The position numbers and the translations under genes were made by a program. Below, piece after piece: positions 1,001 through 60,542 of a stretch of 64,000 bases of DNA. Each line of letters starts with the position of its first letter. Position 1 is the first letter of the stretch. Source of the stretch: Squalus acanthias (lineage: Eukaryota). The stretch spans positions 7,812,001 to 7,876,000 of the forward strand of contig CM059432.1 of the NCBI GenBank assembly GCA_030390025.1, read 5' to 3'. Under the pieces are notes generated by a model that was not told the origin of the DNA, searched no databases, and saw only the letters and a list, made by a program, of their open reading frames with translations.

Positions 1001-1170
1001 TTTTTTTTAAATGGAGACGTAGGCACAAGTAAAGTAAAAGGCAAGTCAGGAGGCATTCAGCACACAAGGAGTGATAACTACCTGGAATGGGCTGCTGGGT
1101 CGGGTAAGATACATCAGAGAGTTAGATGCTTTGATGTTAGGGCCAGAAATGAATGTGGAAGGAGGAACTA

Positions 1171-5425: not shown

Positions 5426-5592
5426 CTCTCCTCCTTTAAGACGCTCCTTAAAACCTGCCTCTTTGACCAACCTTTGTGTCACCTGTCCCTCGTTAAGCAG
5501 CTCAGAGTCAGATTTTGTTTGTTAATACTCCTGTGCAGCGCCTTGGGACGTTTTACTACTTTAAAGGCGCTATATAAATGCAAGTTGTTGCT
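5410..5592 (+). mobile_element. L2 3' end
   Basis: CCTTTAAGACGCTCCTTAAAACC...GGCGCTATATAAATGCAAGTTGTTG, shared with the other L2 copies. Confidence 0.85.
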
Positions 5593-6014: not shown

Positions 6015-7505
6015 GGATTCTATAATTAGGGGATAGATAGCGTCCTCTGCAGCCAAGAACGAGAATCCCGAAGGGTGTGTTGCCTACCCAGTGCCAGGGT
6101 AAGGGATATCTCGAGGCAGCTGGAGAGGAATTTGGAAAGGGAGGGGGTAAATCCAGTTGTTGTGGTCCATGTCAGAACAAACGACATAGGTCAGAACAGG
6201 GAGGAGATCCTGCTGAAGGAGTATCAGGAGTTAGGAGCTAAATTAAAAGGCAGGACCTCGAGGGTAATAATCTCTGGATTATTGCCCGAGCCATGTGCAA
6301 ATAGGCATAGAAGCAGTCAGATCAGTAGAATTAACATGTGGCTAAAGGGCTGGTGTGGGAAAGAGGGGTTCCTTTTTATGGGACACTGGCACCAGTACTG
6401 GGACTGGAAGGATCTGTACTGATGGGATGGGAACCATGTCCTTGCGGAAAGGGTAAATAGGGAGGTGGGAAAGGCTTTAAACTAATAAGATGGGGGGAGG
6501 GAGCTACAAGAAATGAAACCAACCTAAATATAAACAAAACAGGAAAGGAGAGCGTAGGAAACAGTGCATAAGGGAGGACATTGATGGCCAGGGAATAAAT
6601 GGGGTTATAGAACTGGAGTATAAAAAGATGTTTAAAAATAAAGTGAAAGGAACTGCTATTAAAAATGAGTTAAACTGTCTGTACAGCAATGCACACAGTG
6701 TCCGTAATAAAACAGGGGAGCTGGAGGCAATCATGCGTTGCGAGGAGCCAGATATAGTAGGGATTACTGAGACATGGCTACAGAAAAATCAGGACTGGGA
6801 ATTAAACATTGCAGGGTATAACATATTTAGAAAAGATAGGGAGGGGAAAAGGGGAGGTGGAGTAGCTGTACTTACTAGGGATAACATAATGGCAGTATAG
6901 AAAAAAGTGATGCAGCTATCAGCAAAACAGTAACAGAATCCATGTGTATAGAGATAAAAGATAATAAAGGACGAATCACACCACCTAATAGTGGATGGGA
7001 GGTGGAGGAAGAAATATGCAAACAATTTATGGAAATGAGTAAAAACATAGAATAATAATCATGGGAGATTTCAACTACCCCAATATTACTTGGACAGAAG
7101 AGGTAGGTAAAGGGGACAAGTCAATGGGGTTCCTACAATGTATACAGGACTCCTTTCGAACCCAATATGTAAAAAGCCTAACAAGGGAAGATTCGGTATT
7201 GGATCTAGTAATGGGGAATGAACCAGAGCAGATAAGAGAAGTAAAAGTAGGGGAACATCTAGGCAATAGTGACCATAATATAATACGCTTTAAAATAATA
7301 ATTGAGAAGGACGTAAGTATGACGAAGACCAGGGTGATAGATTGGAGAATAGCTGATTTTGAGGGACTGAGAATAGAACTTGGGAAAATAAAATGGGCAG
7401 CAATATTGGCAAGCAATGACGTAGAACAGCAATGGGAAACATTTAAAATGGTGTTTAACAGAGTCAGGAAAAATATATTCCGCTTAAAAACAAGAACAAG
7501 CTAAA
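6015..7505 (+). mobile_element. CR1 LINE: ORF1 esterase (SGNH-like) remnant and ORF2 AP endonuclease, disrupted
   Basis: DSIIRG...CCLPSARVRD...VVVVHVRTNDIG (ORF1). CLYSNAHSV, DIVGITETWL, GDFNYP and SDHN (APE motifs). Stops and frameshifts present. Confidence 0.92.
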
Positions 7506-7509
7506 GACT

Positions 7510-7790
7510 AATGAGACACCATTTCAGGGTCAAATATGACACCAAGGTTGCGAACAGTGTGGTTCAGCCTCAAACAGATGTTAGGGAGAGGGATGGAGTC
7601 AATGGCTAGGGAACGGAGTTTGTGGCGCGGACTGAAAACAATGGCTTCGGTTTTCCCAATATTTAATTGGACAACATTTTTGCTCATCCAGAACTGTATG
7701 TCGGACAAGAAGTCTGACAATTTAGACAATGTGGAGGGTTCGAGAGAAGAAGTACTGAGGTAGAGCTGGGTGTCATCAGCGTACATGTAC
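7510..7790 (-). mobile_element. L2 reverse transcriptase fragment inside the CR1
   Basis: MYADDTQLYLS...LNIGKTEAIVF...VRNLGVIFD. Confidence 0.88.
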
Positions 7791-7809
7791 ATCTCAATTA
7801 ATTAGAAAA

Positions 7810-9322
7810 AGGTGTAGTGCCAGAGGACTGGTGGAGAGCTAACATAATACCTATATTTAAGAAGGGAGATAAAACATGTCCAGGGAACTATAGCCCAGTC
7901 AGCTTAACATCAGTGGTAGGAAAAATAATGGAATCCCTACTAAAGGAGAAAACAGAAGAACATCTAGAAACCAAAAATATAATAATGAATAGTCAGCATG
8001 GATTTCAAAAGGGAAAGTCTTGCTTGTCCAACCTCATTGATTTTATTACATAAGAACATAAGAACATAAGAAATAGGAGCAGGAGTAGGCCAATTGGCCC
8101 CTCGAGCCTGCTCCGCCATTCAATAAGATCATGGCTGATCTGATCCTAACCGCCAATCTACTATCACAGAACCATCTCCTGAACCTAACAGAATTGGACA
8201 CATGAAATAGGAGCAGGATCAGGCTACATGGTCCCTGGGCCCGCTATGCTACCCACAGGGCCATGACCGATCCGAACCTAGACTCATGTCCAAATTCCTG
8301 CCCGCTCCCCGTAACCCTTAATTTCCTTTACCTCTAGGAAACTGACTATTTCTGTTTTAAATTTATGTAATGATGTAGCTTCTACAGCTTTTTGGGGCAG
8401 CATATTTCATGGACCTACCACCCTCTGAGTGAAGTAGTTCCTTCTCATCTCAGTTTTGAAAGAGCAGCCCCTTATTCTAAGACTATGCCCCCTAGTTCTA
8501 GTTTCACCCATCATCGGGAACATCCTCCCCGCATCCACCCGATCCAACCCCTTCACAATCTTATATGTTTCAATAAGATCGCCTCTCATTCTTCTGAACT
8601 CCAATGAGTAGAGTCCCAATCTACCCAACCTCTCCTCATATGTCCATCCCCTCATCCCTGGGATTAACCGAGTGAACCTTCTTTGTACTGACTCGAGAGC
8701 AAGTATGTCTTTTCTTAAGTATGGACACCAAAACTGTATGCAGTATTCCAGGTGCGGTCTCACCAATACCTTGTACAACTGAAGCAATACCTCCCTATTT
8801 TTATATTCTATCCCCCTAGCAATGAAAGCCAACATTCCATTGGCCTTCTTAATCACTTGCTGCACCTGCATACTAACCTTTTGAGTTTCGTGCACCAGGA
8901 CCCCCAGATCCCTTTGTACTTCAGTACTTTCCAGTTTCTTGCCATTAAGATAATAACTTGCTCTACTATTTTTCCTGCCAAAGTGCATAACCTCACACTT
9001 TCCAGTATTGTATTCCATCTGCCAAATCTCTGCCCACTTACTTAGCCTGTCTATGTCCCCTTGCAGATTTTTTATGTCCTCCTCACTCACTACTTTCCCT
9101 CCCATCTTAGTATCATCTGCAAACTTTGATATGTTACACTCTCTTGAAGCGGTAACAGAGAGAATAGACAAGGGTAATGCAGTAGATGTAATTTATCTAG
9201 ATTTTCAAAAGGCCTTTGCTAAGGTGCCACATAATAGACTAATGAATAAGATCAGAGAATGCAGAGTCAGGGGACAAGTAGCAGAATGGATAGCTAGCTG
9301 GCATCAAGACAGAAAGCAGAGA
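7810..9322 (+). mobile_element. CR1 RT fragment split by an antisense CR1 insertion
   Basis: PEDW...NYSPVSLTS...QHGF...SCLSNLIDF (7817-8045) resumes as EAVTERIDKGNAVDVIYLDFQKAF (9146-9322). Confidence 0.88.
8048..9145 (-). mobile_element. 5'-truncated CR1 with two successive 3' UTR modules
   Basis: ORF 8407-9171 contains SKFADDTK and LYKVLVRPHLEYC. (TTCTTATG)n terminal repeats at 8050-8072. Confidence 0.92.
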
Positions 9323-9752
9323 GACTGGGGGGGAGGCCGACGGTTTCCTTGAGGAGCCTGGGAGGGGCTTGGGCGGGGGGGGGGAGGGGACAACACTCCT
9401 GCTCCTCCTGGCCCACAAGGAGTGCTAAAGGAGCCACGTCCCTTGGGGCGCCGGCAGCTCATGCTTCAGATCAGCTGCCGGGAATCCCAGAGGCCGAGCA
9501 TTCCCCCTCACTTAATGTGGCATTTAGGTTGCGACACTGATGATGTCATCAGGCGGCGATGTTGGTATGTTAATTATGCCCCCGCCTGCCTTGTGCGGGA
9601 GCCTCGGCCACGGCTTGATTTTTGCACTTGCAAATTTAAAGGGGCGGGTATGGGGTTGGGTTTCCCGATCCTGATATTTTAACCCCCCGCCCCCGATCCT
9701 CTCACGTGTGCCGGGGTGAGGGGGGGTGGGGGGGCGGATTTAGAATCAAGAC
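9322..9752. mobile_element. GC-rich non-autonomous DNA transposon fragment, probably Harbinger-type
   Basis: GC-rich segment interrupting CR1 sequence, with motifs resembling other MITE arms. TIR and TSD are unclear. Confidence 0.45.
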
Positions 9753-16640: not shown

Positions 16641-16877
16641 AAAATAATTATCTTAGCTCCATTCATTGTAATGAGGCTGAAATCTGCCTCACAGTTTTCC
16701 TGAAACAAAAACACTCGAGCTTCCAATGGCATAATATTTCCTCTTTGTTGTTATTCTCTTCCCCATCTTCTTTGTTCATGATTCTATTAAACAGTTAATT
16801 CATCTTTCATTTTCCAGTCTCAAAGGACCCAGCCGAAATCGTCCACTATTCTCTCCACAGATGCTAACAGATTGTTT

Positions 16878-17423
16878 CCACCATCTACAAGGCACAAGTA
16901 AGGAGTGTGATGGAATACTCTCCACTTGCCTGGATGAGTGCAGCTCCAACAACACTCAAGAAGCTCGACACCATCCAGGACAAAGCAGCCCGCTTGATTG
17001 GCACCCCATCCACCACCTTAAACATTCAATCCCTCCACCACCGGCGTACCGTGGCTGCGGTGTGTACCATCTACAAGATGCACTGCAGCAACTCGCCAAG
17101 GCTTCTTCAGCAGCACCTCCCAAACCCGCGACCTCTTCCACCTAGAAGGACAAGGGCAGCAGGTGCATGGGAACACCACCACCTCCAAGTTCCCCTCCAA
17201 ATCACACACCATCCTGACTTGGAAGTATATCGTCATTCCTTCATCGTCGCTGGGTCAAAATCCTGGAACTCCCTCCCTAACAGCATTGTGGGAGCACGTT
17301 CACCACATGGACTGCAGCGGTTCAAGAAGGCGGCTCACCACCACCTTCTCAAGGGCAATTAGGGATGGGCAATAAATGCTGGCCTTGCAGTGACGCCCAC
17401 ATCCCATGAACGAATAAAAAAAA
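16878..17423 (+). mobile_element. 3' fragment of the tRNA-headed LINE family
   Basis: MEYSPLAWMSAAPTTLKKLDTIQDKAARLIG is nearly identical to ORF 57168-57863. Ends in an A-rich tail. Confidence 0.92.
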
Positions 17424-20164: not shown

Positions 20165-20565
20165 AAAGGGCATGTACCTAGAATTTACAGCACAGAAAGA
20201 GGCCATTCGCCCCATCTTATCCATGCCGGTGTTTGTGCTTCACACGAGTGTGGTTCCAGCACCGATCCCTGTGGAGCCGCACACGGACTGCAGCGGTTCA
20301 AGAAGGCGGCTCACCACCACCTTCTCAAGGGCAATTAGGGATGGGCAATAAATGCTGGCCTTGCCAGCGATGCCCACATCCCATAAACGAATTAAAAAAA
20401 ACACCACTTCCCACCTTTTGCCAGTCTGAGCAGCTGCCCTTAACCCTCTTAATCACTGCTTTCTGTTTTTGTAGCCAGCTTGCTATCCATTCTGCTACTT
20501 GTCCCCTCACTCCACACGCTCTGACCTTAGTCATGAGTCTACTGTTATCGAAGACTTTTCGAAAA
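20165..20565. mobile_element. Cluster of short LINE fragments: CR1 tail, tRNA-headed LINE tail (20268-20400), CR1 RT piece
   Basis: Each piece matches a longer copy elsewhere in the window. Confidence 0.75.
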
Positions 20566-28189: not shown

Positions 28190-29300
28190 ACAACAACAAC
28201 TTGCATTTATATAGCGCCTTTAACATAGCAAGAAGTACCAAGGTGCTCGAAGGAGATTTTTTTCCAGGGGCTAACACAAAAGTTAGTGGGGTTGTGAGGA
28301 GGAAGGGGGATGTGGGTGGAGAGCGATACAAGGAAATGATTATTTAAGAAAGAGGGCCTTATCTGTGATGGTCATGATGGGAGCAGCAAGGTCACCTGAG
28401 ATGGCGAGATCGTGGGTTGGCCGTGAATATGGGTAGGAGAGTTATATGGAGGGAGTGATTTAGGGAGGAAAGGAGGGCAATGAACTCAGAGGAAAGAGAT
28501 CAAGAAGCGTTGAGATGGAGGTTGAAATCACCGAGGATGAGAAGTCGCTCGGTGCAGAGGCTGAGGGAGGAAGGCAGAGAAGATATCTCAGTGAGAAACT
28601 TGGCGTGGTACTTGGGTGGGCAAGGATTTTAAAAGAGAGGCGTGAGGAGTGGAACAAGGTGAGATGCTCAAAGGAGGCGAAGTTGCCAGAGGAGTAGAGA
28701 GATAGACCAAGGGATAATTTAGAGATAAGGGCCACACCGCCACCGTGGTGGTTTGAGCGGGGCAAGTGGTGGAAGGTATAGCCAGGCGGGGAACCTTCAT
28801 TAAGGGGAAAGGTGTCATCACCCCTTAGCCATGTCTCCGTCAAGGCTATGACGTCGATGTGATCATCCACAATAAGCTCATGGATGGCAAGCGAACGTAC
28901 ATTCTGGAGGGAGATGCAGAGAGGGTCGGTGATAGCCGATCCACGGGCAGATTCCAGTGAGTCAGCGCTGGGAGCGACGAGTGGGACGGGACGGAGGTTG
29001 GCAAGATGAGCCCCCGGCAGGCGCGCTGGGTGGGAAGGGCGGGGAGAGAGTAGGATGGGGCAATTGGGGTTGCTGCTCATTCGGAGCCAGCGACGAGTAT
29101 CTCGGTGGGCCCTTTGGAGGATGCCAAGGGAGGCACAGCGGGAATCTGTAGGATTATTTAAGAGGGCTTCAAGCCTTGGATGGCGGCAGGGGAGTAGGAA
29201 AGACGATGAGTGCTGAAGGTCGGGGTTTGTGAGGGTAGAGTACCTGAGGGTGGAGAATCGAAAGGAGGCATGGCGGGGTAAAGAGGAAAAACGGGGGAGT
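28190..29300 (-). mobile_element. L2 ORF2 N-terminal (AP endonuclease) fragment
   Basis: ISLQNVRSL...DVIALTETWL...PPGYTFHHLPR...GGGVALI. A SINE tail abuts it at 29300-29410. Confidence 0.85.
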
Positions 29301-30104
29301 AAAGAAAGAAAAGAAAGAAAGACTTGCATTTCTATAGCGCCTTTCACAACCACCGGACGTCTCAAAGCGCTTTACAGCCAATGAAGTACTTTTGGAGTGT
29401 AGTCACTGACATGAATCTTGTCATTCATGTATGAAGTAATACTGGGCGGCCTGCTGGTGGCGCTGTCCAGGGAGAGTGTAAATACTTGGGCATGGGCCCA
29501 GCTTGCTTAGGACATTCCTCAACAGGAACTAGTGAAGGACACAACTAGATCTCCATGTTGAAAAACAGTTGATTAAAGCTTTGTTTAACGCTTAGACCAA
29601 GTGCCTAGTAGTTTTCTTACATCAGTCACTGTTGCAATGTGGGAAACGGGGAAATAGAAGTGATGGGCGCGGGTCCGGAGCAGCAGCCAAAACACGCACG
29701 CGAATGGACACGGGGAAACTAAGCTACACGAAATTGGTTACATGCAAGATCAAGATAGCAATGCTCTGAAATACACGGGGAGTAGGGAGGAGACAACACG
29801 CGGGAAAACTAGAGTTAAAGTCAGAGGTGCGATAAAGCCGATGTAGGTTGGGTGGAATCAGCGATGAACTGATGTCCAGGTGCCAAGACAGGTGAGTGAG
29901 ACCAAAGGCTATGTGAAGGGCAGAGCATTGATGCGTGTATATCCATGAATTCAAATATTTCCTGTGACCATATTGAATCAGCTGTTGCTGGTGCCTAGAC
30001 TTCCGTATGACGAAGTGATTAGTAGCAACACCAGACAGCTACTGGTGCCTGTGGCTAGACCCCCCAGGAACCATTGCTGATAAATCTAAAAGCCGCCACA
30101 ACAA

Positions 30105-32022
30105 AGCACCACACTTTAGGAAGGACATGAAGGAGAGATTACAGAAGAGATTTACTAGAATGGCTCCAAGGAGAAGGGAATACAGTTACGTGGATAGACT
30201 GGAGAAGCTGGGGGTTGTTCTCCTTGGAGCAGAGAAGGCAAAGAGGAGATTTGATCGAGGTGTTTAAAATCATGACGGGTTTAGATAGAGTAAATAAAGA
30301 GAAACTGTTTCCAGTGGCTGAAGGGTCGGTAACCAGAGGGCACAGATTTAAGGTGATTGGCAAAAGAACCAGAGGCGACATGAGGAAAAACGTTTTTACG
30401 CAGCGAGTGGTTTGGATTTGGAATGCACTGCCTGATAGGGCGGTGGATACAGATTCAATAGTAGCCTGCAAAAGGGAATTGGATCGATACTGGAAGGAGA
30501 AAAAATTGCAGTGATATGGGGAAAGAGCGGGGGAGTGGGACTAACTGGATTGCTCTTTGCAAGAGCCGGCGCAGACTCGATGGGCAGAATGTCACTGTTT
30601 AAGAATGACGAGAGGGGGAAACCAGGGAATTATAGACCAGTTAGCCTAACATCTGTTGTTGGGAAATTGACAGAGTCTATAATTAAGGATAGGGTGACTG
30701 AACACCTCGAAAATTTTCAGTTGATCAGAGAGAGCCAGCATGGATTTGTGAAAGGTAGGTCATGCCTGACAAACCTGATTGAATTTTTTGAGGTGGTGAC
30801 TAAAGTAGTGGATAGGGGAATATATGGATGTTATTTATATGGACTTCCAGAAGGCATTTGATAAAGTCCCACATAAGACACTGTTAACTAAGGTGGAAGC
30901 CCGTGGAATTGAGGGAAAAGTATTGACCTGGTTAAGAAATTGGCTGAGCGGCAGGAGACAGAGAGTAGGGATAATGGGCAGGTACTCTAATTGGTAGGAT
31001 GTGACTAGTGATGTCCTGCAGGGATCTGTGTTGGGGCCTCAACTATTCACAGTATTTATTAACGACTTAGATGATGGCATAGAAAGTCATATAGTCAAAT
31101 TTGCCAATGACACAGAGATAGGTGGCATTGTAGGCAGTGTAGATGAAAGCATAAAATTACAAAGGGATATCGACAGATTAAGTGAATGGGCAAAACTGTG
31201 GCAAATGGATTTCAGTGTAGGCAAATATGAGGTCATCCACTTTGAACATAAAAAGGATAGAACAGGGTACTTTCTAAATGGTGAAAAGCTAAAAACAGTG
31301 GAGGTCCAAAGAGACTTGAGGGTCCAGGTACATAGATCATTAAAATGTCATGAACAGGTACAGAAAATAATTAAAATGGCTAATGGAATGCTGGCCTTTA
31401 TATCTAGGACTAGAATACAAGGGGGTAGAAGTTATGCTGCAGCTGTACAAAACCCTGGTTAGACCACACCTGGAGCACTGTGAGCAGTTCTGGGCACCAC
31501 ACCTTAGGAAGGATATATTGACCTTGGAGGGAGTGCAGCGCAGGTTTACCGGAATGATACCCGGACTCCAAGGGTTAAGATACGAGGAGAGATTACACAA
31601 ATTAGGGTTGTATTCCCTAGAATTTAGAAGGATAAGGGGTGATCTGATCCAAGTTTTCAAGATATTAAGGGGAAGAGATAGGGTAGATAGAGAGAAACTA
31701 TTTCCGCTGGTTGGGGATTCTAGGACTAGGGGGCATAGTCTAAAAATTAGAGCCAGACCTTTCAGGAGTGAAATTAGGAAACACTTCTACACACAAAGGG
31801 TGGTCGAAGTTTGGAACTCTCTTCCGCAAACGGCAATTGATGCTAGACCAATTGTTAATATTAAATCGCCGATTTAAAGCTTTTTGTTAACCAAGAATAT
31901 TAAGGGATATGGGCCAAAGGCGGGTATATGGAGTTAGGTCACAGATCAGCCATGATCTCATTGAATGGCGGAACAGGCTCGAGGGGCTCAATGGCCTCCT
32001 CCTGTTCCTATGTTCCTGTGTT
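30105..32022 (+). mobile_element. CR1 3' fragment followed by a longer CR1 RT-to-3' copy (30590-32022)
   Basis: PGNYRPVSLTS, QHGF, QGSVLGP, KFANDT, LYKTLVRPHLE. Frameshifted. Confidence 0.92.
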
Positions 32023-38774: not shown

Positions 38775-41150
38775 ATAGACCTGGCTCAAAAAAGGGCAGG
38801 ATTGGGTATTAAATATTCCTGGTTATAAGGTGTTCAGGAAAGATAGGGAAGGAAAGATAGGAGGTTTTGTGACAGTATTGATTAAGGAGAATGTTACATT
38901 GCTGGAGAGAGATGATGTCCTGGAGGGGTCAAAGACAGAATCTATACGGCTAGAGTTAAGAAATAATAGATGTGCCATTACACTACTGAGTGTATAGTGG
39001 GAAAGATATGGAGGAGCAAATTTGCAGAGAAATTACAGAGAGGAGCAAGAACTATAGAGTAGTAATAATGGGGGACTTCAACTATCCTAATATAGACTGG
39101 GATCGTAATAGTGTTAAGGGCAGAGAAGGGGAAGAATTTCTGAAGTGTGTTCAGGAGAACTTTCTTGATCAGTATGTTTCCGTTCCGATGAGGGAGGAGG
39201 CATTGCTGGATCTGGTTCTGGGGAATGAGGTGGGTCAAGTGGAGCAAGTGTCAGTAGGTGAACATTTAGGGAACAGTGATCATAGTATCATAAGGTTTAG
39301 ATTAGCTATGGAAAAGGATAGGGAGCAATCTAGAGTAAAAATATTTAACTGGGGGAAGGCCAATTTCAGTGGGTTGAGAACGGATCTGCCCCGGGTAAAT
39401 TGGAATCAAAGATTGGCAGGCAAAACTAGAATGGAACAATGGGCTGCCTTTAAAGAGAAAATAGTTCAGGTACAGTTGAGGTACATTCCCACTAGTGGGA
39501 AAGGCAGGGCAACTAAAGTCAGGGCTCCCTGGATGATGAAACAGATAGAGAATATGATGAAGCAGAAAAAGAGCACGTATGACAGATGTTAGGGCGAGAA
39601 TACATCTGAGAATCAGGCTATATATAAAAAGGTCAGAGGAGAAGTGAAAAAGAAAATAAGAAGGGCAAAGAGAGGGTATGAGAATAGAATGGCAGCCAAC
39701 ATAAAAGGTAATCCAAAAGTCTTCTATAGACATATAAATAGTAAACGGGTAAATTGGAATCAAAGATTGGCAGGCAAAACTGTAATGGAAGGGGAAGGGG
39801 AGGGGTGGGGCCGATTAGGGACCAGAAAGGAGACCTATGCATGGAGGCAGAGGGTATGGCTGAGGTACTAAACGAGTACTTTGCATCTGTCTTCACCAAG
39901 GAAGAAGATGCTGCCATTGACATAGTGAAGGAGGAGGTAGTGGAGATACTGGATGGGATAAAAATTGATAAAGAAGAATTATTAGCTATATTTAAAGTAG
40001 ATAAATCACCAGGAGTGGATGGGATGCATCCTAGGATGCTGAGGGAATTGAGGGAGGAAATCACGGAGGTACTGGCCATAATCTTCCAATCCTCCTTAGA
40101 TAAGGGGGCGGTGCCAGAGGACTGGAGAATTACAAATGTTACACCATTGTTCAAAAAAGGGTGTAAAGATAAACCCAGCAACTATTGGCTAAGTGACAGG
40201 CAAGAGAGAGTAGTGGTGAACAGTTGTTTTTCGGACTGGAGGAAGGTATACAGTGGTGTTCCCCAGGGGTCGGTTCTAGGACCACTGCTTTCCTTGATAT
40301 ATTAATGACTTGGATGTGGGTGTACAGGGCACTATTTCAAAATTTTCAGCTGACACAAAACTTAGAAGTATAGTGAACAGTGAGGAGGAGAATGATAGAC
40401 TTCAAGAGGACACAGACAGGCTGGTGGAATGGGTGGACACGTGGCAGATGAAATTTAAGGCAGAAAACCTGCACAAATCGTTGAAGGTGGCAGGGCAGGT
40501 TGAGAAAGCAGTTAAAAAAGCTTACGGGATCCTGGGCTTCATGAATAGAGGTATAGAGTACAAAAGCGTGGAAATTATGATGAACCTGTATAAAACACTG
40601 GTTTGGCCCCAACTGGAGTAGTGTGTCCAATTCTGGGCACCGCACTTTAGGAACGATGTGAAGGCCTTAGAGAGGGTGCAGAAAAGATTTACGAGAATGG
40701 TTCCAGGAATGAGGGACTTCAGTTACATGGATAGACTGGAGAAGCTGGGGTTGTTCTCCTTAGAGCAGAGAAGGTTGAGAGGAGATTTGATAGAGGTGTT
40801 CAAAATCATGAGGTGTCTGGACAGAGTAGATAGAGAGAAACTGTTCCCATTGGCAGAAGTGTCGAGAACCAGAGGACACAGATTTAAGGTGATTGGCAAA
40901 AGAACCAAAGGCAACATAAGAGAAAACTTTTTTACGCAGCGAGTGGTAAGGATCTGGAATGCACTGCCTGAGAGGGTGGTGGAGGCAGATTCAATCTTAT
41001 CTTTTAAAAGGGAGTTGGATAAGTATTTAAAGGAAACAAATTTGCAGGGCTACAGGGAAAGGGCGGGGGAGTGCGACTAGCTGAGAGTCGGCAAGGGCTC
41101 AACGGGCCGAATGGCCTTCTTCCGTGCTGTAACCATTCTATGATTCTATG
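38775..41150 (+). mobile_element. CR1 ORF2 (APE-RT) with internal deletions and a complete 3' end
   Basis: GDFNYP, SDHS, KSPGVDG, GVPQGSVLGP. Terminal CATTCTATGATTCTATG repeats. Confidence 0.93.
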
Positions 41151-41409
41151 AGGTCATTGACACAGTGGACAGGGGAGTGATAGAATGTTGTCGATATAGA
41201 TTTCCAAAAGGCATTTGATAAGACTCCGCACAAGAGATTATCAGCCAAAATGATAGCGCACGGAATTGGAGGTAGCCCCGTGACATAAATTGGTAATTGG
41301 GTCAGAGGTCGGGGTCAGAGAGTAGGAATAAAGCTCTCTGATTGGTGGGATGTGACAAGTGGTATTGGAGCCTCAGCTTTTCACCACATAGTGATGAAGG
41401 AATAGCGCT

Positions 41410-42090
41410 GGGGACAAAATTCGGTTACGCCCCGTTTGGGGGTGGTAACAGAATTAGCGCCGGAGATTTACCGCCCCGGCCACTAAATTTGGCTTACCGC
41501 CCCGGCGAGCAAGTGGAACACTATCTCGGGCGCTCCACTTCCTCTCAGGGCAGTGTCGGGGTGCAAAGCGCGGTAGTGCCGGTGCGCTACGCTGCCGCTC
41601 CGCGTAGCGCGGATGCTTTTCAGCGCCCCTGCCCTTCCATTAAAGGGGAGGGATACTGCAAGCTCTGCAGGGCCTCAGATGGCCCACCAGGGCGGCGTGG
41701 TGCCGTGGCTGCAGCCCGGCACCGGTACCGGGCTGCGCGATGGTGGCCATGGACCACGCCCATGGGCCATCGTGGAAGGCAGAAAAAATAAAATGGCGGC
41801 GTAGGCCCTTTAATTAGCGACCCACGAGCGGAGGTCAGCCCGGCCCGCGACCCGCGAGGCAGGCGCTGACACTGCCTGCCGCAGCCTCGCGGGGCGCAGC
41901 CGAATTTCTGCCGCGGGGCGCTAAGGTGTCACGTCGCACGCCGATGACCAGCGGGAGTACGGCGCTATCGGCTAGCGCCCTGCCGAATTTCTCGTGAGGC
42001 ACTATCCCCCCAGGTGATAAGCCCTTTGTGCCCCGTTAGCGCCCCCCAGAGGCGATAACGGCAGGCGCAAAGGAGCCGAATTTTGCGGCC
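41410..42090. mobile_element. Harbinger-type MITE, GGCGCTAA family
   Basis: GGGGACAAAATTCGG...CCGAATTTTGCGGCC, colinear with 10904-11638, inside a CR1 remnant. TSD unclear. Confidence 0.8.
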
Positions 42091-42112: not shown

Positions 42113-43565
42113 ACATAAGAACATAAGAAATAGAGCAGGAATAGGCCACTTGGCCCCTCGAGTCTGCTCTGCCATTCAATAAGATCATGGCTGATCTTGG
42201 GCTCAAAGCCACTTCCCAGCCCGCTCCCCATAACCCTTCACTCCCTTATCTTGTAAAAATCTGTCTATCTCCACCTTAAATGTATTTAATGACCCAACCT
42301 CCACAGCTCTCTGGGGCAGAGAATTCCACAGATTTACGACCCTCTGAGAGAAGAAATTCCTCCTCATCTCAGTTCTAAAAGGCCGACCCTTTATTCTGAA
42401 ACTATGCCCCCGAGTTCTAGATTTCCCCACGAGGGGAAACATCCTCTCTGCATCTACCTTGTCGAGACCCCTCAATATCTTATGTGTTTCAATAAGATCA
42501 CCTCTTATTCTTCTAAATTCCAATGAGTATAGGCCCAACCTGCTCAACCTTTCTTCATAAGTCAACCCCCTCATCTCTGGAATTAACCTAGTGAATCGTC
42601 TCTGAACTGCCTCCAATGCAAGTATATCCTTCCTTAAATAAGGAGACCAAAACTGCACGCAGTACTCAAGGTGTGGTCTCACCAATACCCTGTACAGTTG
42701 TAGCAGGACTTCCCTGCTTTTATACTCCAACCCCCTTGCAATAAAGGCCAACATTCCATTTGTCTTTTTGATTAATTTCTGTACCTGCATGCTAACTTTT
42801 TGTGTTTCATGCACAAGGACCCCCAGGTCCCTCTGAACTTTAGCATTTTGTAATCTCTCTCCATTTAAATAATAATTTGCTTTTTTATTTTTCCTGCCAA
42901 AGTGGATAACCTTGCACTTTCCCACATTATACTCCATCTGCCAAATGTTTGCCCACTCACTTAGCCTGACTATATCCCTTTGCAGATACTTTGAGTCCTC
43001 TGCACAACTTGCTTTCCCACCCATCTTTGTATCATCTGCAAATCTGGCTACATTACACTCGCTTCCTTCATCCAAGTCATTAATATAGATTGTAAATAGT
43101 TGGGGCCCCAGCACCGATCCTTGTGGCACCCCACTAGTTACCGTTTGCCAACCAGAAAATGACCCATTTATCCCGACTCTCTGCTTTCTGTTAGTTAGCC
43201 AATTCTCTAACTATGCTAATATATTACCCCCAACTCCATGAGCTCTTATCTTATGCAATAACCTTTTATGTGGCACCTTATCGAATGCCTTCTGGAAATC
43301 CAAATACACAACATCTACTGGTTCCCCTTTATCCACCCTGCTCGTTACATCCTCAAAGAACGCCAGCAAATTTGTCAAACATGATTTCCCTTTCATAAAA
43401 CCATGCTGACTCTGCTTGACTGTATTATGATTTTCCAAATGCCCTGCTACTGCTTCCTTAATGAAGGACTCCAGCATTTTCCCAACGACAGATGTTAGGC
43501 TAACTGGTCTATAGTTTCCTGCTTTCTGTCTCCCTCCTTTCTTAAATAGGGGTGTTACATTTGCT
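42113..43565 (-). mobile_element. Young 5'-truncated CR1; RT nearly intact with one in-frame stop
   Basis: ORFs 43211-43636 and 42203-43129: NYRPVSLTS, LDFQKAFD, PQGSVLGP, FADDTK. Confidence 0.95.
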
Positions 43566-43987
43566 TTTTGTATATTTTTTGGTATTTTTTTTTGTATATT
43601 TACATAGTTTGTAGATGACATTAAATTAGGAAGCAAACAAAGTTGTGTAGATGGGAGCAGGAAATGACAAAAACAGACTGATTGAGTGGGTATAATTCCG
43701 CCGACAAAAAAATTCTCTTTTGCATCAAAGAAAAACTTTTTTTAAAAGAATCCTTGAAACTAAGAATCTGGATTTCATCTTAAAGATAAAGTTACAACTC
43801 TCGAAAACCAGGCTGAAATATTATTGAACATCTGGACAGCAGCTTCTTAGCAGTAGAGTTAGCTTATGCTCTGGCTCGAGTGGAGCATAAACGCCGGCAT
43901 GGACTGGTTGGGCCGAATGGCCTGTTTCTGTGCCGTATATCCCGTGTAATTTGCATTTCAGTGGCTTCAGAGTCTTCAGATGTCTAA

Positions 43988-44915
43988 GATAAGAACATAA
44001 GAACATAAGAAATAAGAGCAGGAATAGGCCACTTGGCCCCTCGAGCCTGCTCCACCATTCAATAAGATCATGGCTGATCTTGCGCTCAAAGCCACTTCCC
44101 TGCCCGCTCCCCATAACCCTTCACTCCCTTATCTTGCCAAAATCTGTCTATCTCCACCTTAAATGTATTTAATGACCCAGCCTCCACAGCTCTCTGGGCA
44201 GAGAATTCCACAGATTTACGACCCTCTGAGAGAAGAAATTCCTCCTCATCTCCGTTTTAAATGGGTGATCCCTTTATTTGAAACTATGCCCCCGAGTTCT
44301 AGATTTCCCCACGAGGGGAAACATCCTCTCTGCATCTACCTTGTTGAGCCCCTCAGTATCTTATATGTTTCAATAAGATCACCTCTTATTCTTCTAAATT
44401 CCAATGAGTATAGGCCCAACCTGCTCAACCTTTCCTCATAAGTCAACCCCCTCATCTCTGGAATTAACCTAGTGAATCGTCTCTGAACTGCCTCCAATGC
44501 AAGTATATCCTTCCTTAAATAAGGAGACCAAAACTGCACGTAGTACTCAAGGTGTGGTCTCACCAATACCCTGTATAGTTGTAGCAGGACTTCCCTGCTT
44601 TTATACTCCAACCCCCTTGAAATAAAGGCCAACATTCCATTTGCCTTTTTGATTACTTGCTGTACCTGCATGCTAACTTTTTGTGTTTCATGCACAAGGA
44701 CCCCCAGGTCCCTCTGAACTGTAGCGTTTTGTAATCTCTCTCCATTTAAATAATAGTTTGCTTTTTTATTTTTCTTACCAAAGTGGATAACCTCACACTT
44801 ACCCACATTATACTCCATCTGCCAAATGTTTGCCCACTCACGTAGCCTGACTATATCCCTTTGCAGATTCTTTGAGTCCTCTGCACAACTTGCTTTCCCA
44901 CCCATCTTTGTATCA
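43988..44915 (-). mobile_element. Young 5'-truncated CR1, same subfamily as 42113-43565
   Basis: Near-identical protein (GGKASCAEDSK...) and 3' UTR. Confidence 0.95.
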
Positions 44916-45156
44916 TATTGTTCCGAGCGAGGGTGCTTCCTAATGAAACTAGCCTCACATGCTTGACCAGATGAGTCATCAGTTCGAGGAGGCTAAAACT
45001 TTAGGCTTGTTTCCAAACATGTTGCCAATGTTCGATGTGGGTGGAAAAAAAATACAAACTTTTGGAGGAACATTAATGACTCCTCTAGCAGTAAGTATTC
45101 TAGCAAATGGCATTGACATCCTGTAATTAGTTATTTAAGCAATGGACCTCCATGGT

Positions 45157-45672
45157 TACAAAAGCAAAATACTGTGGATGCTGGAAATCTGAAATAAAAA
45201 CAGAAAATGCCAGTAACGATCAGCAGGTCAGGCAGCATCTGTGTAGAGAGAAACAGAGTTAACGTTTCAGGTCGATGACCCTTCGTCAGAACTGAAAGAA
45301 GTTGTAACAGGTTTTTAAGCAAGTGTAGGGGCAGGGAAATGGGGGAGGGGAGGAAAGAACAAAAGGGAAGGTCTGTGATGGGGCGGAAGGCAGGAGAGAT
45401 TAAGAGACAAAAGGGATGATGGTGTAAAGTGAAAGGAGATGGTAATGGGACAAGTTAAGAAACAAAAGATGGGTCTAGAAGAGGCGTAAATGGGAATAGC
45501 AGAATCATCAACAGCTGCAATGTGAAAAAATAGGGGTCAGAGGTTATGGTCTGAAATTGTTGAACTCGATGTTGAGTCCAGAAGGCTGTAAAGTGCCTAA
45601 TAAAAAGATGAGATGCTGTTCCTCGAGCTTACGTTGAGCTTCATTGGAACAGTGTAAGAGGCGGAAGACAGA
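45157..45672 (-). mobile_element. Penelope-like element 3' end (second family) with pseudo-LTR
   Basis: LLHCSNEAQRKLEEQHLIFLLGTLQPSGLNIEFNNF is a GIY-YIG C-terminus. Resumes briefly after 49433. Confidence 0.85.
45257..45293 (-). ncRNA. Minimal hammerhead ribozyme motif
   Basis: Reverse complement AGTT-CTGACGA-A-GGGTC-ATC-GACCT-GAAA-CG-TT-AACT. Confidence 0.8.
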
Positions 45673-45952
45673 GGCCATGATTTTGCCTACCTGGGCGGGT
45701 TGATGGTGGGAGAGGTCGATGGCGGGCCGCGAGTCCGTTGCTGCTTCTATCCCGCTGATAGAAAAGATCTTACTGTAATGGGCCTTGTTAAGCCCGCCCT
45801 GCGCGTTACCTGGCCCAATTAAAAGGTGCGGGTCTGGTGACGTCAGTGCTGACGCGTTTGGTTCCGGTATATTTAAAGGGGCCATGGCCCCATTTGATCT
45901 CACTTCTGATCTTGACAGGCTGTAGTTCTGACATTGTTTGTTGGAGGTGAAA

Positions 45953-47831
45953 ATGACTTCCCAGAAGCAGAGAGCTGCTCCTCGCTTCAGCAATGACGCC
46001 CTCCATGTTCTTGTGGAGGGAGTCAGAGCACGCAGGGAGGTTCTCTTCCCTGCCAGTGGGTGGAAGAGACCTCCCCAGGAGACCAAGGCAACCTGGCTGT
46101 AGATAGCAGAGGAGGTGGCCAGCAGGTGTGTGGTGATGCGGACCTGGGTGCAGTGCCGCAAGCGCTTTAATGATTTTCTAACATCGGGAATAGTGAGTAT
46201 AAAGCCACACTTACCTTCATGCTGCTGTGCCTGTCATCACATCCCCATCACTCTGCATTCCCAACCCTACTCCTGCACATCCTTACTCAAATCAACATCC
46301 CTTGCACCTTCACCCATCCCTCTCTCTCTATCTACATTATCACATCCCCATCTTACTAAGCACCCCTCACACTGACCCTCATCCTAATGCAATGACACCA
46401 AGTAACAACACAAAAGGAGGCAACTTCGTATTGCCACCCCACTCCATCATAGTCTCCCTCTAAAGATCTAAGCCATCCATTCCTTACACTCATTCCATCA
46501 CTCTCACTCAATCTTCTCTTCTTTCCCTCCTTGCAGGAAAAGAGAGCCCACAATAAGAGGGAGAGGGAGAGAACAGGAGGAGGCCCTCAATCCATGGCAA
46601 TTCTGACGAGTGCAGAGGAGGCAGCCCTGGACATTAGTGGTGTGGTGGACCAGCCGGAAGTGGGGAACGGCGAGAGGGGCTCACCAGAACAACCTGGTGA
46701 CAGAATCACTTTCCATACATCTACATGGCATTCATCATTCACTCATATGGGGGCTGATGTGAAGAGACATTGAATGCTCATCAGGTGCTTAATGGTATCT
46801 GTATGCAATTGACATATCATATAGCTAACTGATGTCTTTACTCTCGTACAGGTCCATCAAGAGCACCCCCACTGTCCAGGAGAAAGAGCAAGATGACTCC
46901 TCAGAGGAGCCTCCAGCCTCTGAGGGCGCAGCGCCACCCCGGACAAGGCAAGCCAGCACCAGCGCAGATGCACACACCTCGGTGGGGCCGTCGCAAGATG
47001 GAGTAGAGATGTCACCTGGTGTGTCTCACAGCACAGGTGAGCAGGAGCAGTTGGTGGAGACAGGAACAGCAGTGGAGACTCCTCGTCGGAGGGCGCAGGA
47101 CTCTCCCAGCTCTGCTCAGCTGCATGCAGACACTGAGCCTCGGGGACCAGCCAGGAAGAGGGCGATCCTGGAGCTGCAGGAACAAGTGCAGGAGGCTCTG
47201 ACTGGTTTTGCAACCACGGTGACTGCGAGTGTGCAGAGAATGGAGGAGTCCATCTCAAAACATGACCACCACCGTGGCGCACGCACTCGCGACTGTAGGT
47301 TCCTCCATGGATAGGATGGCCACCTGCATGGAGGACCTAATGCACCAGTTGCACGAGCACATGGTTTCAATTCAAAATAGCTGGGCATCTATGGAGGAGA
47401 GAAACCAGAGGCTCATAGACATCCTTTCTAGGAGGGATGTCAGTGTAGAGGTGGTCCCTCATGGCCCCACTGATGTGCAGCAAAGCGCTTTTCAGCTACT
47501 TGCTAGCAGAGAAGTGCGGGTGGCCCATGAGAGGGATGATGGTGGGAGGGGACATGGAAGTGGGGGCTCCTCTCCAAGCGCTCACACTTCTACCCCCTTG
47601 CCAACCCCTCGGTCAGAGCCCCAGATGTCTCCCCGGACAGCGATGGCCGAGTCTGTCCCTGCACAGTTGCAGGAGGAGCAGACTTTGGCGGGGTCCTCAC
47701 AGGCTCCAAAACCCAGAGGACAACTGCCAAAGGCGTCTAAGCAGGTGCAGCAAGGAAGTGAGGAGGCTGCTGAAGCCACAGGGGTAGCACCACGTAGAAG
47801 CACTCGGAAAAGAAAGATGCCACACAAATAG
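45953..47831 (+). pseudogene. Harbinger Myb/SANT-like DNA-binding protein; exons 45953-46192, 46537-46696, 46852-47831
   Basis: MTSQKQRAAPRFSNDALHVLVEGV...W..IAEEV...RTWVQCRKRFND | EKRAHNKRERERTGGG. GT-AG introns. TAG at 46100 and frameshifts in exon 3. Basic C-terminus RRSTRKRK. Confidence 0.85.
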
Positions 47832-56732: not shown

Positions 56733-57111
56733 TTTCAAATAAAACTGTTGGACTATAACCTGGTGTTGTGCAACTTCTCATTTTTGTCCACCCCAGTCCA
56801 ACACCGGCATCTCCGCATCATACCTCAACTTCAACTACAATAGAACTTTACTCCCCCGCCCCTTTACGTCAACAGGTCTTTGCTTCCATTTCTCAGGCCA
56901 GCTATCGTTCTCTGAGTGACAATCCTAATTTAGCAGCTACTCCTGACAACATATGGGAAGTTTTGTGCTTATTTCTTCTAAAACTTTGAGCATCTTGGAT
57001 AGTTTGCCCAGCAAAAATAACAGGTTCACCTGTCTTTCGATGAGACTTTGGGGAAAAAATTGGGTGGAACCCCCCTCGGGGCTCTAACTTCGCCGGGGCG
57101 CTACTTTTTAA

Positions 57112-60100
57112 AATTTTGTTTATGGGATGTGGGCGTCGCTGGCAAGGCCAGCATTTATTGCCCATCCCTAATTGCCCTTGAGAAGGTGGTTGTGAGCCGC
57201 CGCCTTGAACCGCTGCAGTCCGTGTGGTGAAGGTACTCCCACAGTGCTGTTAGGGAGGGAGTTCCAGGATTTTGACCCAGCGACGATGAAGGATCGGCGA
57301 TATATTTCCAAGTCAAAATGGTGTGTGACTTGGAGGGGAACTTGGAGGTGGTGGTGTTCCCATGCACCTGCTGCCCTTGTCCTTCTAGCTGGAAGAGGTC
57401 GCGGGTTTGGGAGGGGCTGCCGAAGAAGCCTTGGCGAGTTGCTGCAGTGCATCTTGTAGATGGTACACACTACAGCCACGGTACGCCGGTGGTGGAGGGA
57501 GTGAATGTTTAAGGTGGTGGATGGGGTGCCAATCAAGCGGGCTGCTTTGTCCTGGATGGTGTCGAGCTTCTTGAGCGTTGTTGGAGCTGCACTCATCCAG
57601 GCAAGTGGAGAGTATTCCATCACACTCCTGACTTGTGCCTTGTAGATGGTGGAACGGCTTTGGGGAGTCAGGAGGTGAAACACTTGCTGCAGAATACCTA
57701 GCCTCTGACCTGCTCTTGTTGCCACAGTATTTATGTGGCTGGTCCAGTTAAGTTTCTGGTCAATGGTAACCCCCAGGATGTTGATGGTGGGGGATTCAGC
57801 GATGGTAATGCCGTTGAATGTCAAGGGGAGGTGGTTAGACTCTCGCTTGTTGGAGATAGTCATTGCCTGGCACTTCTGTGGCGCGAATGTTACCTGCTAC
57901 TAATCAGCCCAAGCCTGAACGTCGTCCAGGTCTTGTTGCATGCGGGCATGGACTGCTTCATTATCTGAGGAGTTGCGAATGGCACTGAACCCTGTGCAGT
58001 CATCAGCAAACATCCCCACTTCTGACCTTATGATGGAGGGAAGGTCATTGATGAAGCAGCTGAAGATGGTTGGGCCTAGGACACTGCCCTGAGGAACTCC
58101 TGCAGCAATGTCCTGGGGCTGAGATGATTGACCTGCAACAACCACGACCATCTTCCTTTGTGCTAGGTATGACTCCAGCCAGTGGAGAGTTTCCCCCCTG
58201 ATTCCCATTGACTTCAATTTTACTAGGGCTCCTTGATGCCACACTCAATCAAATGCTGCCTTGATGTCAAGGGCAGTCACTCTCACCTCACCTCTGGAAT
58301 TCAGCTCCTTTGTTCATGTTTGGACCAAGGCTGTAATGAGGTCTGGAGTTGAGGGGTCCTGGCGGAACCCAAACTGAGCATCAGTGAGCAGGTTATTGGT
58401 AAGTGCTGCTTGATAGCACTGTCGGTGACACCTTCCATCACTTTGCTGATGATTGAGAGTAGGCTGCTGGGGCGGTAAATGGCCGGATTGTATTTGTCCT
58501 GCCTTTTGTGGATAGGACATACCTGGGCAGTTTTCCACATTGTCAGGTAGATGCCAGTGTTGTAGCTGTACTGGAACAGCTTGGCTAAAGGCACAGCTAG
58601 TTCTGGAGCACAAGTCTTCAGCACGACAGCCAGGATGTTGTCGGGGCCCATAGCCTTTGCTGTATCCAGTGCGCTCAGCCGTTTCTTGATATCACGTGGA
58701 GTGAATCGAATTGGCTGAAGACTGGCTTCTGTGATTGTGGGGACATCAGGAAGAAAGAAATAAAGAAAGAAAGAAAGAAAGAAAGACTTGCATTTATAGG
58801 AGGATGCCGATATGGATCATCCACTTGGCACCTCTGGCTGGAGATGGTTGCAAATGCTTCAGCCTTGTCTTTTGCACTCACGTGCTGGGCTCCGCCATTA
58901 TTGAGGATGGGGATATTCATGGAGCCTCCTCCTCCCATTAGTTGTTTAATTGTCCACCACCATTCACGACTAGATGTGGCAGGACTGCAAAGCTTTGATC
59001 GGATCTATTGATTGTGCGATCACTTAGCTCTGTTTATAACATGCTGCTTTTGCTGTTTAGCATGCATGTAGTCCTGTGTTGTAGCTTCCCCAGGTTGACA
59101 CCTCATTTTTAGGTATGCCTGGTGCTGCTCCTGGCATGCTCTTCTGCACTCCTCATTGAACCAGGGTTGGTCCCCTGGCTTGATGGTAATGGTAGAGTGA
59201 GGGATATGCTGGGCCATGAGGTTACAGACTGTGGTGGAGTACAATTCTGCTGCTGCTGATGGCCCACAGCGTCTCATGGATGCCCAGTTTTGAGCTGCTA
59301 GATCTGTTCTGAATCTATCCCATTTAGCACAGTGGTAGTGCCACACAACACAATGGAGGGTGTCCTCAGTGTGAAGATGGGTCTTCGTCTCCACAAGGAC
59401 TGTGCGGTGGTCACTGCTACCAATGCTGTCATGGATAGATGCATCTGTGACACGTAGATTGGTGAGGATGAGGTCAAGTAGGTTTTTCCCTCGTGTTGGT
59501 TCTCTCACCAACTGCCACAAGCCCAGACTGGCAGCTATGTCCTTCAGGACTCGGCCAGCTCGGACAGTAGTGGTGCTACCGAGCCACTCTTGGTGATGGA
59601 CATTGAAGTCCCCCACCCAGAGTACATTCTGTGCCCTTGCTACCCTTACTGCTTCTTCATGGTGTTCAACATGGAGGACTGATTCATCAGCTGAGGGAGG
59701 GCGGTAGGTGGTATTCAGCAGGAGGTTTCCTTGCCCATGCTTAACCTGAAGCCATGAGACTTCATGGGGTCCAGAGTTAATGTTGAGGACTCCCAGGGCT
59801 GCTCCCTCCCAACTGTATACCACTGTACTGCCACCTCTGGTGGGTCTGTCCTGCCGGTGGGACACAACATACCCAGGGATGGTGATGGAGGAGTTTGGGA
59901 CATTGGCTGAAAGGTATGATTCTGTGAGTATGACTATGTCAGGCTGTTTGCTTGACTAGTCTGTGGGACAGCTCTCCCAATTTTGACACAAGTCCCCAGA
60001 TGTCAGTGAGGAGGACATTGCAGGGTCGACTGGGCTGGGTGTGCTGATGTCGTGTCCGAAGTCGATCGTCCTGTTTTATTCTTCTTATTGTTTTCTGCAG

Positions 60101-60430
60101 CCGTTTGTTACAACTGAGTGGCTTGCTGGGCCATTTCAAAGGGCAGTTAAGAGTCAACCACATTGCTGGTTGTCTGTGGGTCTGGAGTTACATATAGGCT
60201 AGACCGGATAGGATGGCAGATTTCTTCCATAAAAGGACATCAGTGAACCACTTTACGGCAATCTGATAGTTTAATGGTCATCGTTACTGATGCTAGCTTT
60301 TTATTCCAGATTTATTTGATGAACTGATTTTAAATTCCCCAGTTGCGACTTGAATTACATACATGTCTCTGGATCATTAGTCCAGGCCTTGGGATTACTA
60401 GTCCAGTAACATAACCACTATGCTACCGTT
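57112..60430 (-). mobile_element. Apparently full-length single-ORF LINE (APE-RT, CR1/L2 group but distinct from the CR1s here) with a tRNA-like 5' head; frameshifted
   Basis: NVLLTDIWGL, YRPPS, GDFNVHH, LDLILTN, SDHR (APE). GPDNI, QFGFR, GVPQGSVLGP, FADD (RT). No ORF1 between head and APE. A truncated SINE tail is inserted at ~58750-58797. Confidence 0.9.
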
Positions 60431-60542
60431 TCCAGTAGCAGGTTGGACTTGGTAAAAGAGCAGGATGGATTTAAAAGTCTGAACAGCACTGATAGCCGAC
60501 CGAGAAATGGATTGTTTGTTTCGAAAGACCGCTGGAACCAAG

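Follow-up and report, generated by a model that had tools for sequence, protein, structure and literature searches.

In the textbook division, long interspersed elements (LINEs) are coding transcripts of RNA polymerase II (Pol II), whereas short interspersed elements (SINEs) represent non-coding transcripts of RNA polymerase III (Pol III) that borrow only the tail of a LINE. A stretch of 64,000 nt from the spiny dogfish Squalus acanthias (GenBank assembly GCA_030390025.1, contig CM059432.1, positions 7,812,001 to 7,876,000; referred to below as the window and numbered from its first letter) raises the question of whether this line can be crossed by a LINE that carries the head of a SINE itself. 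An original prediction, made from the letters alone, had described such a LINE as autonomous and possibly transcribed by Pol III, and had taken a SINE in the same window for its internal-deletion derivative. As judged from its alignments, the LINE is a dead copy of an abundant elasmobranch family, Zenon, in which the SINE-type head is a family trait.

The LINE unit comprises, in this order, a head of ~325 nt, a single frame of ~970 codons encoding an apurinic endonuclease (APE) and a reverse transcriptase (RT), a 3' untranslated region (UTR) of ~70 nt, and a short poly(A). In the window copy the reading frame is interrupted by frameshifts and by a (GAAA)n microsatellite, and it survives as the three pieces of open reading frame (ORF) listed in Table 1, the first of which matches Exo_endo_phos_2 (PF14529, E=2.2e-11) and PF03372 (E=9.3e-8) in Pfam. 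No ORF1 is present between the head and the endonuclease of this copy. The A box of the head is perfect and fits the consensus form TRGCNNAGTGG, and the B box is decayed. Alignment, Pfam, and the frame map thus bear out what had been said of the head, its boxes, and the lack of an ORF1. The element lies on the minus strand, with its ends moved by the alignments from 60430–57112 to 60433–57105. A repeat scan of both flanks of the LINE found nothing.

The junction between head and ORF recurs throughout the genome. A query of 181 nt across this junction was used to search the window's own 3.7-Gb genome, and 40 of the 2927 candidates were scored. The junction is spanned at all 39 of the other scored loci, on many contigs and with unrelated flanks, at 84–89% identity. 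Of the 29 loci fetched with ±1.5 kb, 24 start at element nt 1–10 and the remaining five at nt 46–160. Longer stretches were compared at 20 loci, eight of which match in one colinear piece that begins at nt ≤5 and ends at nt ≥3307 (83–87% identity), with six more being colinear apart from internal gaps or short 5' losses. The copies are 80–91% identical to that in the window, the family being old and decayed. Of 14 other copies compared together with 40 nt of flanking DNA, 11 keep the 5' end. In these the DNA farther upstream bears no relation from copy to copy until GGGAAYGGTAGC is reached, eight bases 5' of the A box, and the SINE copies start at the same point as the LINE copies, as GGGTACGGTAGC. 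In LINE and SINE copies alike, the A box TAGCATAGTGG occupies nt 9–19 and the B box GAGTTCAAATCC lies at about nt 72–83; the latter is decayed in the window copy but near-perfect in most others. Genome-wide, the exact 24-mer that closes the head is found 4503 times, and in 1828 of these places it continues with AC, as in the LINE. These counts, together with the presence of the same junction in the published consensuses of five species described below, refute the view that the junction is a one-off chimera, created by a SINE lying beside a 5'-truncated LINE or by a template switch in one insertion; no point is left in its favor, and we assign it practically no probability. An autonomous-type LINE with a SINE head, APE and RT, and without an ORF1, is therefore a trait of the family, as had been proposed.

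A different 5' UTR, or an ORF1, in other full-length copies would have told against this, and it was also looked for in a sample chosen without regard to the head. In a search with the APE protein, 127 of 132,542 candidates were scored, among which the window piece has 126 relatives at 86–89% amino acid identity, and the 20 loci with the longest open frames were taken. Twelve of them reach into the head, and the other eight are cut off at nt 367–483, with upstream DNA that differs from copy to copy. Since the DNA upstream of these eight copies is unrelated, it gives no sign of an alternative 5' region, and none of the copies examined, this sample included, has another 5' UTR or an ORF1. Target-site duplications, searched with a crude script that required a shared word of at least 7 nt, were found in none of three LINE copies and in one of 11 SINE copies, a result that says little for copies as old as these. 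Two LINE loci, L007 and L008 (G000:C2), have equal scores and lie 9 kb apart, and two SINE loci, L096 and L097 (G000:C10, at 119.99 Mb and 119.89 Mb), have identical flanks; for these reasons both pairs are regarded as segmental or tandem duplications and not as separate insertions.

Whether the family was already catalogued, a question raised along with the original prediction, can be answered in the affirmative as far as the sequence is concerned. Supplementary Table 2 of Stuart et al. 2026 (PMC13343379) contains Zenon-1 consensuses (CarCar_, HypSab_, RhiTyp_, ScyCan_, and SquAca_) of 2.9–3.3 kb each, the hosts in the table being white shark, stingray, whale shark, catshark, and spiny dogfish, the last with SquAca_Zenon-1 to -3. 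Over the first 400 nt, which is the part compared, all five species share the A/B-box head at the start of the consensus, the body after it, and the GTTGTA junction, and each of the three SquAca_Zenon entries contains GTTGTAACAAACC; the Zenon consensuses of hagfish and coelacanth begin differently. According to the available text of the same paper, Zenon elements have no ORF1 and end with a poly(A) tail, said to be unique to them among CR1-group elements, while the elasmobranch ones are in no repeat database. Zenon and Rex1 are there without an ORF1 in all sequences surveyed, so that the earlier statement that LINEs of the CR1/L2 group normally have one is wrong or out of date. The dogfish LINE has the same properties. 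It encodes APE and RT in a single ORF without an ORF1, as indicated by Pfam matches on one strand and by the lack of any common sequence 5' of the head or, in truncated copies, 5' of the point of truncation. Its poly(A) tail is seen in 33 aligned 3' ends, nearly all of which read ...CCCA(T/G)(A/G)AACGAATA followed by an A run, commonly of 5–10 A's, with one AATAAA ~48 nt upstream and a second one at the very end. By head, junction, absence of ORF1, and poly(A), the Zenon of the published consensuses and the LINE of the window belong to the same family.

The head of these elements has so far been described less fully than their sequence. The text of Stuart et al. 2026 (PMC13343379) mentions neither tRNA nor Pol III and mentions SINE once, and it gives no account of the head with its boxes, of the SINEs derived from the LINE, or of the lack of an AUG; the top ORF2 given for SquAca_Zenon-1 in Table S3 has 739 aa. 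The open-access literature searched yielded no description of a tRNA-headed LINE or of the four motif strings used as queries. The LINE family is thus public as sequence, with no description of its head found elsewhere in that literature, and because the public sequences lack annotation of the head, repeat libraries may split or mislabel the family as a SINE plus a LINE.

The SINE of the window consists of the same head joined directly to the tail of the LINE. The likeness of the two heads ends in both elements at ...CACTCAGTTGTA, after which the SINE matches the final ~95 nt of the LINE (blastn 76% in the head and 84% in the tail), which hold the last 13 codons of the ORF and the 3' UTR. This composition agrees with the original prediction, apart from the end of the SINE, which is shifted from 1000 to 1011. 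Other SINE copies end with ...GTGAATGAATA and an A run; the T8 that closes the window SINE is private to it, and a terminal T run as a built-in terminator was accordingly rejected. The junction of GTTGTA with TTCAAGAAGG is found at all 39 other scored loci (90–93% identity, 3679 candidates) and in every printed alignment row (L080–L100 and the window). The 24-mer at the head end is followed by TT 258 times and continues otherwise, with neither AC nor TT, in 2417 places, 20 of which were fetched, all from the start of contig C1 and thus as a non-random sample. Seven of these are LINE variants, with AA, CC, TC, or CA after GTTGTA, twelve are head-plus-tail forms with at least seven distinct deletion junctions among them, and one is of another kind.

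The direction of descent is given by a second SINE family, present at all 39 other scored loci (88–92% identity, 2398 candidates). It keeps 14–17 LINE-specific nt after GTTGTA (CCAAACCGCTACGA...) as well as ~40 nt more of the LINE tail. As it has LINE-only sequence on both sides of the deletion, the SINEs derive from the headed LINE, while the reverse order would require the insertion of an ORF into a SINE. Read from these junctions, the SINEs arose from the headed LINE by internal deletion, and did so at least twice, as had been predicted for the SINE of the window. Both types consist solely of 5' and 3' parts of the autonomous LINE and are in this sense bipartite. The ~400-nt element at 599–1011 is also short and non-coding and has the tail of a partner LINE, as tRNA-derived SINEs do, which does not apply to the 3.3-kb LINE. 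Mean identity of the heads is 0.89 among LINEs, 0.91 among SINEs, and 0.89 between LINEs and SINEs, in a small sample of five LINE and ten SINE heads.

Several further observations concern the SINE copies. At L115 (G000:C1:14.078 Mb), the head end is followed by unrelated sequence, TCAAAATAAAAACAGAAAATGCTGG..., which may be another inserted repeat or another chimera. A perfect palindromic hairpin adjoins the SINE in L073 (2832–2904) and on either strand shows a weak likeness to mir-7094 (E=0.0037; 31.6 bits, where the gathering score is 90), probably by chance or as an inverted repeat. Some contigs from four runs, the kind of which was guessed, join the tail to the head end and omit ~2930 nt, which corresponds to the SINE form; neither starts nor strand can be read from them.

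The beginning of the enzyme frame is unusual. In the window copy, an open frame extends out of the head into APE, and this had been taken for a property of the element; it is the result of an 11-nt deletion private to this copy. For the family as a whole, the TAA of GTTG-TAA-C marks the opening of the APE frame, the head ending 0–4 codons before the opening, and there is no ATG in this frame before the endonuclease, the first conserved residues of which are KVLLTNIWGL. The fourth codon of the frame is ACA in 25, ACG in two, and ATG in two of 29 distinct junctions. Both the second SINE family and the SquAca_Zenon consensuses in print have ACG at this codon, and the two ATGs therefore look like products of CpG decay. 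An ATG within the head, considered as a general start codon, was rejected, being in frame with APE in only three of 13 copies and there through different private indels. The ATG in GAATGAAACC is present in the consensuses of all five species. In eight of nine copies of the subfamily with a 15-nt insertion it lies 101 nt 5' of the anchor codon, a spacing that places the endonuclease in the -1 frame of the conserved ATG. The other subfamily has ATA at this site, together with an ATG in the head in the same frame (modal spacing 173 nt), which by eye is open. Among the species consensuses, eight of ~12 differences in the ATG stretch are found, by eye, at the third position of the ATG frame. We can speculate that a -1 slip at GCA-AAG-U (within ...GACCCUGCAAAGUCC...) would join ...DPAK to the VLLTN of the endonuclease. 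This site is not a canonical slip heptamer, and the fold after it gives no support for a stimulating structure (z = -1.69, with 12 of 200 shuffles folding as well).

We consider it an evenly balanced proposition that the LINE and its SINEs alike would be transcribed by Pol III from the head as their internal promoter, with a T-free sense strand letting Pol III reach the A tail. In this mechanism, Pol III would start ~8 nt 5' of the A box, as on the SINEs, and would read the whole 3.3 kb, which is proposed because the ancestral sense strand contained no T4 terminator; it would then pass the encoded A tail and run into the flank. The resulting RNA would serve as both message and template, and its translation would be unconventional, as the APE-RT frame has no AUG. 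This proposal draws on the scarcity of T runs on the sense strand. From composition, 147.7 runs of at least four T's (T4+) would be expected in the 35 copies compared (107 kb), and 25 were seen, while A4+ runs numbered 486 against 503.5 expected. Sixteen copies contain no T4+ run at all, and the ancestor must have had none, because no such run is found in more than two copies; the T4/T5 run in the two heads of the window is private too. By comparison, ~15 A runs are common to at least 12 copies. Five other LINE stretches in the window together have 51 T runs against 36 expected and thus no depletion; 14 against 8.8 were counted in the LINE at 6030–9349, used as a control, and none of the decayed LINE coding stretches of Table 1 is depleted. 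The T-run depletion is real and specific to this LINE family, yet it does not prove that terminators were avoided by selection. The depletion that had been named as a check is thus confirmed as the absence of any ancestral T4+ run, with a statistical significance that is modest.

A number of observations weigh against a Pol III unit of this kind. As the 35 copies share one ancestor, the fair test compares zero runs with ~4.2 expected, for a Poisson probability of ~0.015, and under a second-order Markov null 38 TTTT words are expected in the pooled copies, with 29 seen. Moreover, TT and TTT are also depleted (0.76 and 0.68), and Phe codons are TTC rather than TTT in a ratio of 217:78, so that composition or codon use could explain part of the effect. 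The head is not recognizably homologous to a tRNA: ARAGORN found no tRNA in the window, Rfam reported none at its gathering score and none at E≤1 on three LINE and four SINE loci, and single-sequence folds of the heads gave no cloverleaf. The two AATAAA hexamers and the L1-like A tail fit polyadenylation by Pol II. Products of Pol III are uncapped and usually short, and we know of no 3.3-kb coding Pol III transcript that could serve as a precedent. Finally, the check for one intact ORF failed, the full frame of ~970 codons being present in none of the 35 copies examined; the longest frames have 789, 716, and 690 codons, and in one copy a frame of 929 codons is interrupted by a single stop.

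It is quite possible, although we lean towards doubting it, that the LINE is transcribed by Pol II, its head being a captured or retained SINE-like 5' UTR with boxes that are used with Pol III by the short derivatives only. The head would then drive Pol II from within the element, or would serve the RNA in its stability, in ribonucleoprotein assembly, or in translation. Such a reading draws on the polyadenylation signals and on the depletion that loses significance under the Markov null, as well as on the size and coding nature of a 3.3-kb element, and Kojima 2018 (PMC5786205), in the available text, treats LINEs and bipartite LINE derivatives as Pol II units. It also accommodates the conservation of the body of the head (~nt 190–325), which by eye differs at 3–5 of ~150 positions among the dogfish, white-shark, and stingray consensuses. 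An identity of ~97–98% between species, set against the ">84%" that Stuart et al. 2026 (PMC13343379) report for the whole element, indicates strong constraint on the body whichever polymerase is used, and conservation beyond that of the whole element would imply a function in RNA or DNA other than that of the boxes. On the other hand, several observations tell against this reading: in each of the five species the LINE consensus has retained both the A and the B box while, by eye, the stretch between them has changed, the 5' end of the LINE is identical to that of the SINEs, no T4+ run was ancestral and other LINEs of the window show no such depletion, and a main frame without an AUG would be odd for a capped, scanned message. 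In the published consensuses, head nt ~40–70 read, by eye, CTGGA...TCCAG in the dogfish type and CCCAG...CTGGG in the white-shark type; a hairpin between the A and B boxes seems to have been kept through different sequence. A further explanation, to which we give very little credence, is that the head is a processing signal of an element co-transcribed with host genes, a tRNA-like fold being cut on its 5' side (RNase P-like), in the manner of the 5' ribozymes of R2, RTE, and L1Tc. This would account for a 5' end fixed at the start of the box-bearing part, and 5' ends that cleave themselves have been described from six clades of LINEs (Kojima 2018, PMC5786205), but the heads match no tRNA model and fold into no cloverleaf, the avoidance of T runs would be left unexplained, and the SINE derivatives would require a promoter of their own.

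Taken as a whole, the most far-reaching form of the Pol III proposal, which we regard as somewhat unlikely, is that an autonomous coding retrotransposon may have existed as a Pol III unit in sharks and rays for hundreds of millions of years, starting at a tRNA-type promoter, having no cap-dependent AUG in its enzyme frame, depending on recoding (a -1 slip from the conserved AUG), and providing in its 5' UTR the source of a SINE body. If true, it would show how SINE "bodies" arise, and, were Pol III transcription confirmed, the family would provide a coding message made by Pol III, a rare thing, decoded through a non-AUG start or a frameshift. Independently of the polymerase, shark Zenon crosses the line between LINEs and SINEs, as a coding LINE bears the head of a SINE, and one deletion yields a ready SINE, repeatedly. 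The conserved body of these SINEs has a concrete origin, the 5' UTR of the LINE itself.

Table 1. Coordinates of the Zenon-type elements and of other features in the 64,000-nt window.
Feature	Position	Strand	Basis or remark
Decayed full-length tRNA-headed Zenon-type LINE	57105..60433	-	Ends from alignments with flanks
Head: A/B-box (tRNA-type) putative promoter part and conserved ~150-nt body	60109..60433	-	Aligns to SINE 599-903
A box TAGCATAGTGG	60415..60425	-	Kept in LINE and SINE copies
TAA within GTTG-TAA-C, head end	60108..60110	-	APE-RT frame of the family opens just 3' of TAA
Endonuclease (APE) ORF piece, 311 codons open	59020..59955	-	Pfam
Reverse transcriptase ORF piece	57900..58244	-	Pfam PF00078 RVT_1, E=4.5e-13
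C-terminal ORF piece; stop TAG at 57170-57168	57168..57896	-	
(GAAA)n microsatellite inserted in the LINE copy	58750..58790	strand-neutral	
3' tail common to LINE and SINE; two AATAAA, short terminal A run	57105..57209	-	
Final 540 nt of a copy of the same LINE, truncated at the 5' side	16876..17414	+	blastn 95% to element nt 2777-3316
Final 112 nt of a copy of the same LINE, truncated at the 5' side	20280..20391	+	blastn 95.5%
SINE: head (599-903) and LINE tail (904-~1000); A tail replaced by private T8	599..1011	+	
CR1/L2-type LINE with esterase-type ORF1	6030..9349	+	
Endonuclease of LINE 6030-9349	7043..7501	+	
RT piece of LINE 6030-9349	8957..9349	+	
Decayed LINE coding stretch with APE or RVT_1	28463..29371	-	
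Decayed LINE coding stretch with APE or RVT_1	30439..31459	+	
Decayed LINE coding stretch with APE or RVT_1	38990..41788	+	
Decayed LINE coding stretch with APE or RVT_1	42206..46233	-	
Minisatellite	4..365		
CT-rich low-complexity array, ~1 kb	4389..5434		

Among the other features of the window, the ORF1 of the CR1/L2-type LINE resembles a GDSL lipase, with a value of E=2.9e-4 that is below the Pfam cut-off. The minisatellite is composed of 18 copies of the 20-nt unit GGGGGAGATCGGAAGGGTTG, with 94% matches. The CT-rich array has periods of 15, 23, and 38, and all six of its frames are open over 360–480 codons, with no match in Pfam.

The arrangement described here can be compared with several known pairs of LINEs and SINEs. 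In the ingi/RIME and L1Tc/NARTc systems of trypanosomes, the SINE-like element also consists of the first and last parts of the LINE, and the common 5' end is a promoter. That 5' element is a Pol II promoter with a ribozyme and not an A/B-box head, and the hosts are protists. The HE1 SINE and HER1 LINE of sharks and rays, reportedly described by Ogiwara and colleagues in 1999, are said to have a common 3' tail, with the SINE bearing a head of tRNA type. The sequence of HE1 presumably differs from that of the shark Zenon head. In a table in PMC3747384, HE1 is listed as a V-SINE that has only the tail in common with HER1. SacSINE1 and LmeSINE1 (Luchetti et al. 2017, PMC5499810, available text) are likewise tRNA-headed shark SINEs with a highly conserved body and a tail of the CR1 group or L2; their tail matches L2-2_CM over ~140–160 nt, and their body is the Deu domain.

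The closest parallels are found in Kojima 2018 (PMC5786205), which also contains the statement "SINEs cannot encode a protein" and considers a conflict of Pol II signals with Pol III to be possible. Bov-A/Bov-tA, WALLSI, and SINE2-1_ACar, with their Vingi or RTE partners, were likewise built from 5' and 3' parts of a LINE through internal deletion, and the 5' region of the LINE became the "body" of the SINE, as in shark Zenon. According to that text, LINE 5' regions in SINE bodies come from RTE and Vingi only, and bipartite derivatives are known only from RTE, Ingi, Vingi, and R2; the shark elements extend them to the CR1 group. In the systems reviewed there, the tRNA head is thought to have been added later to a headless bipartite LINE derivative, the autonomous LINE being itself headless, whereas in sharks the autonomous LINE, a member of the CR1 group, carries the head itself.

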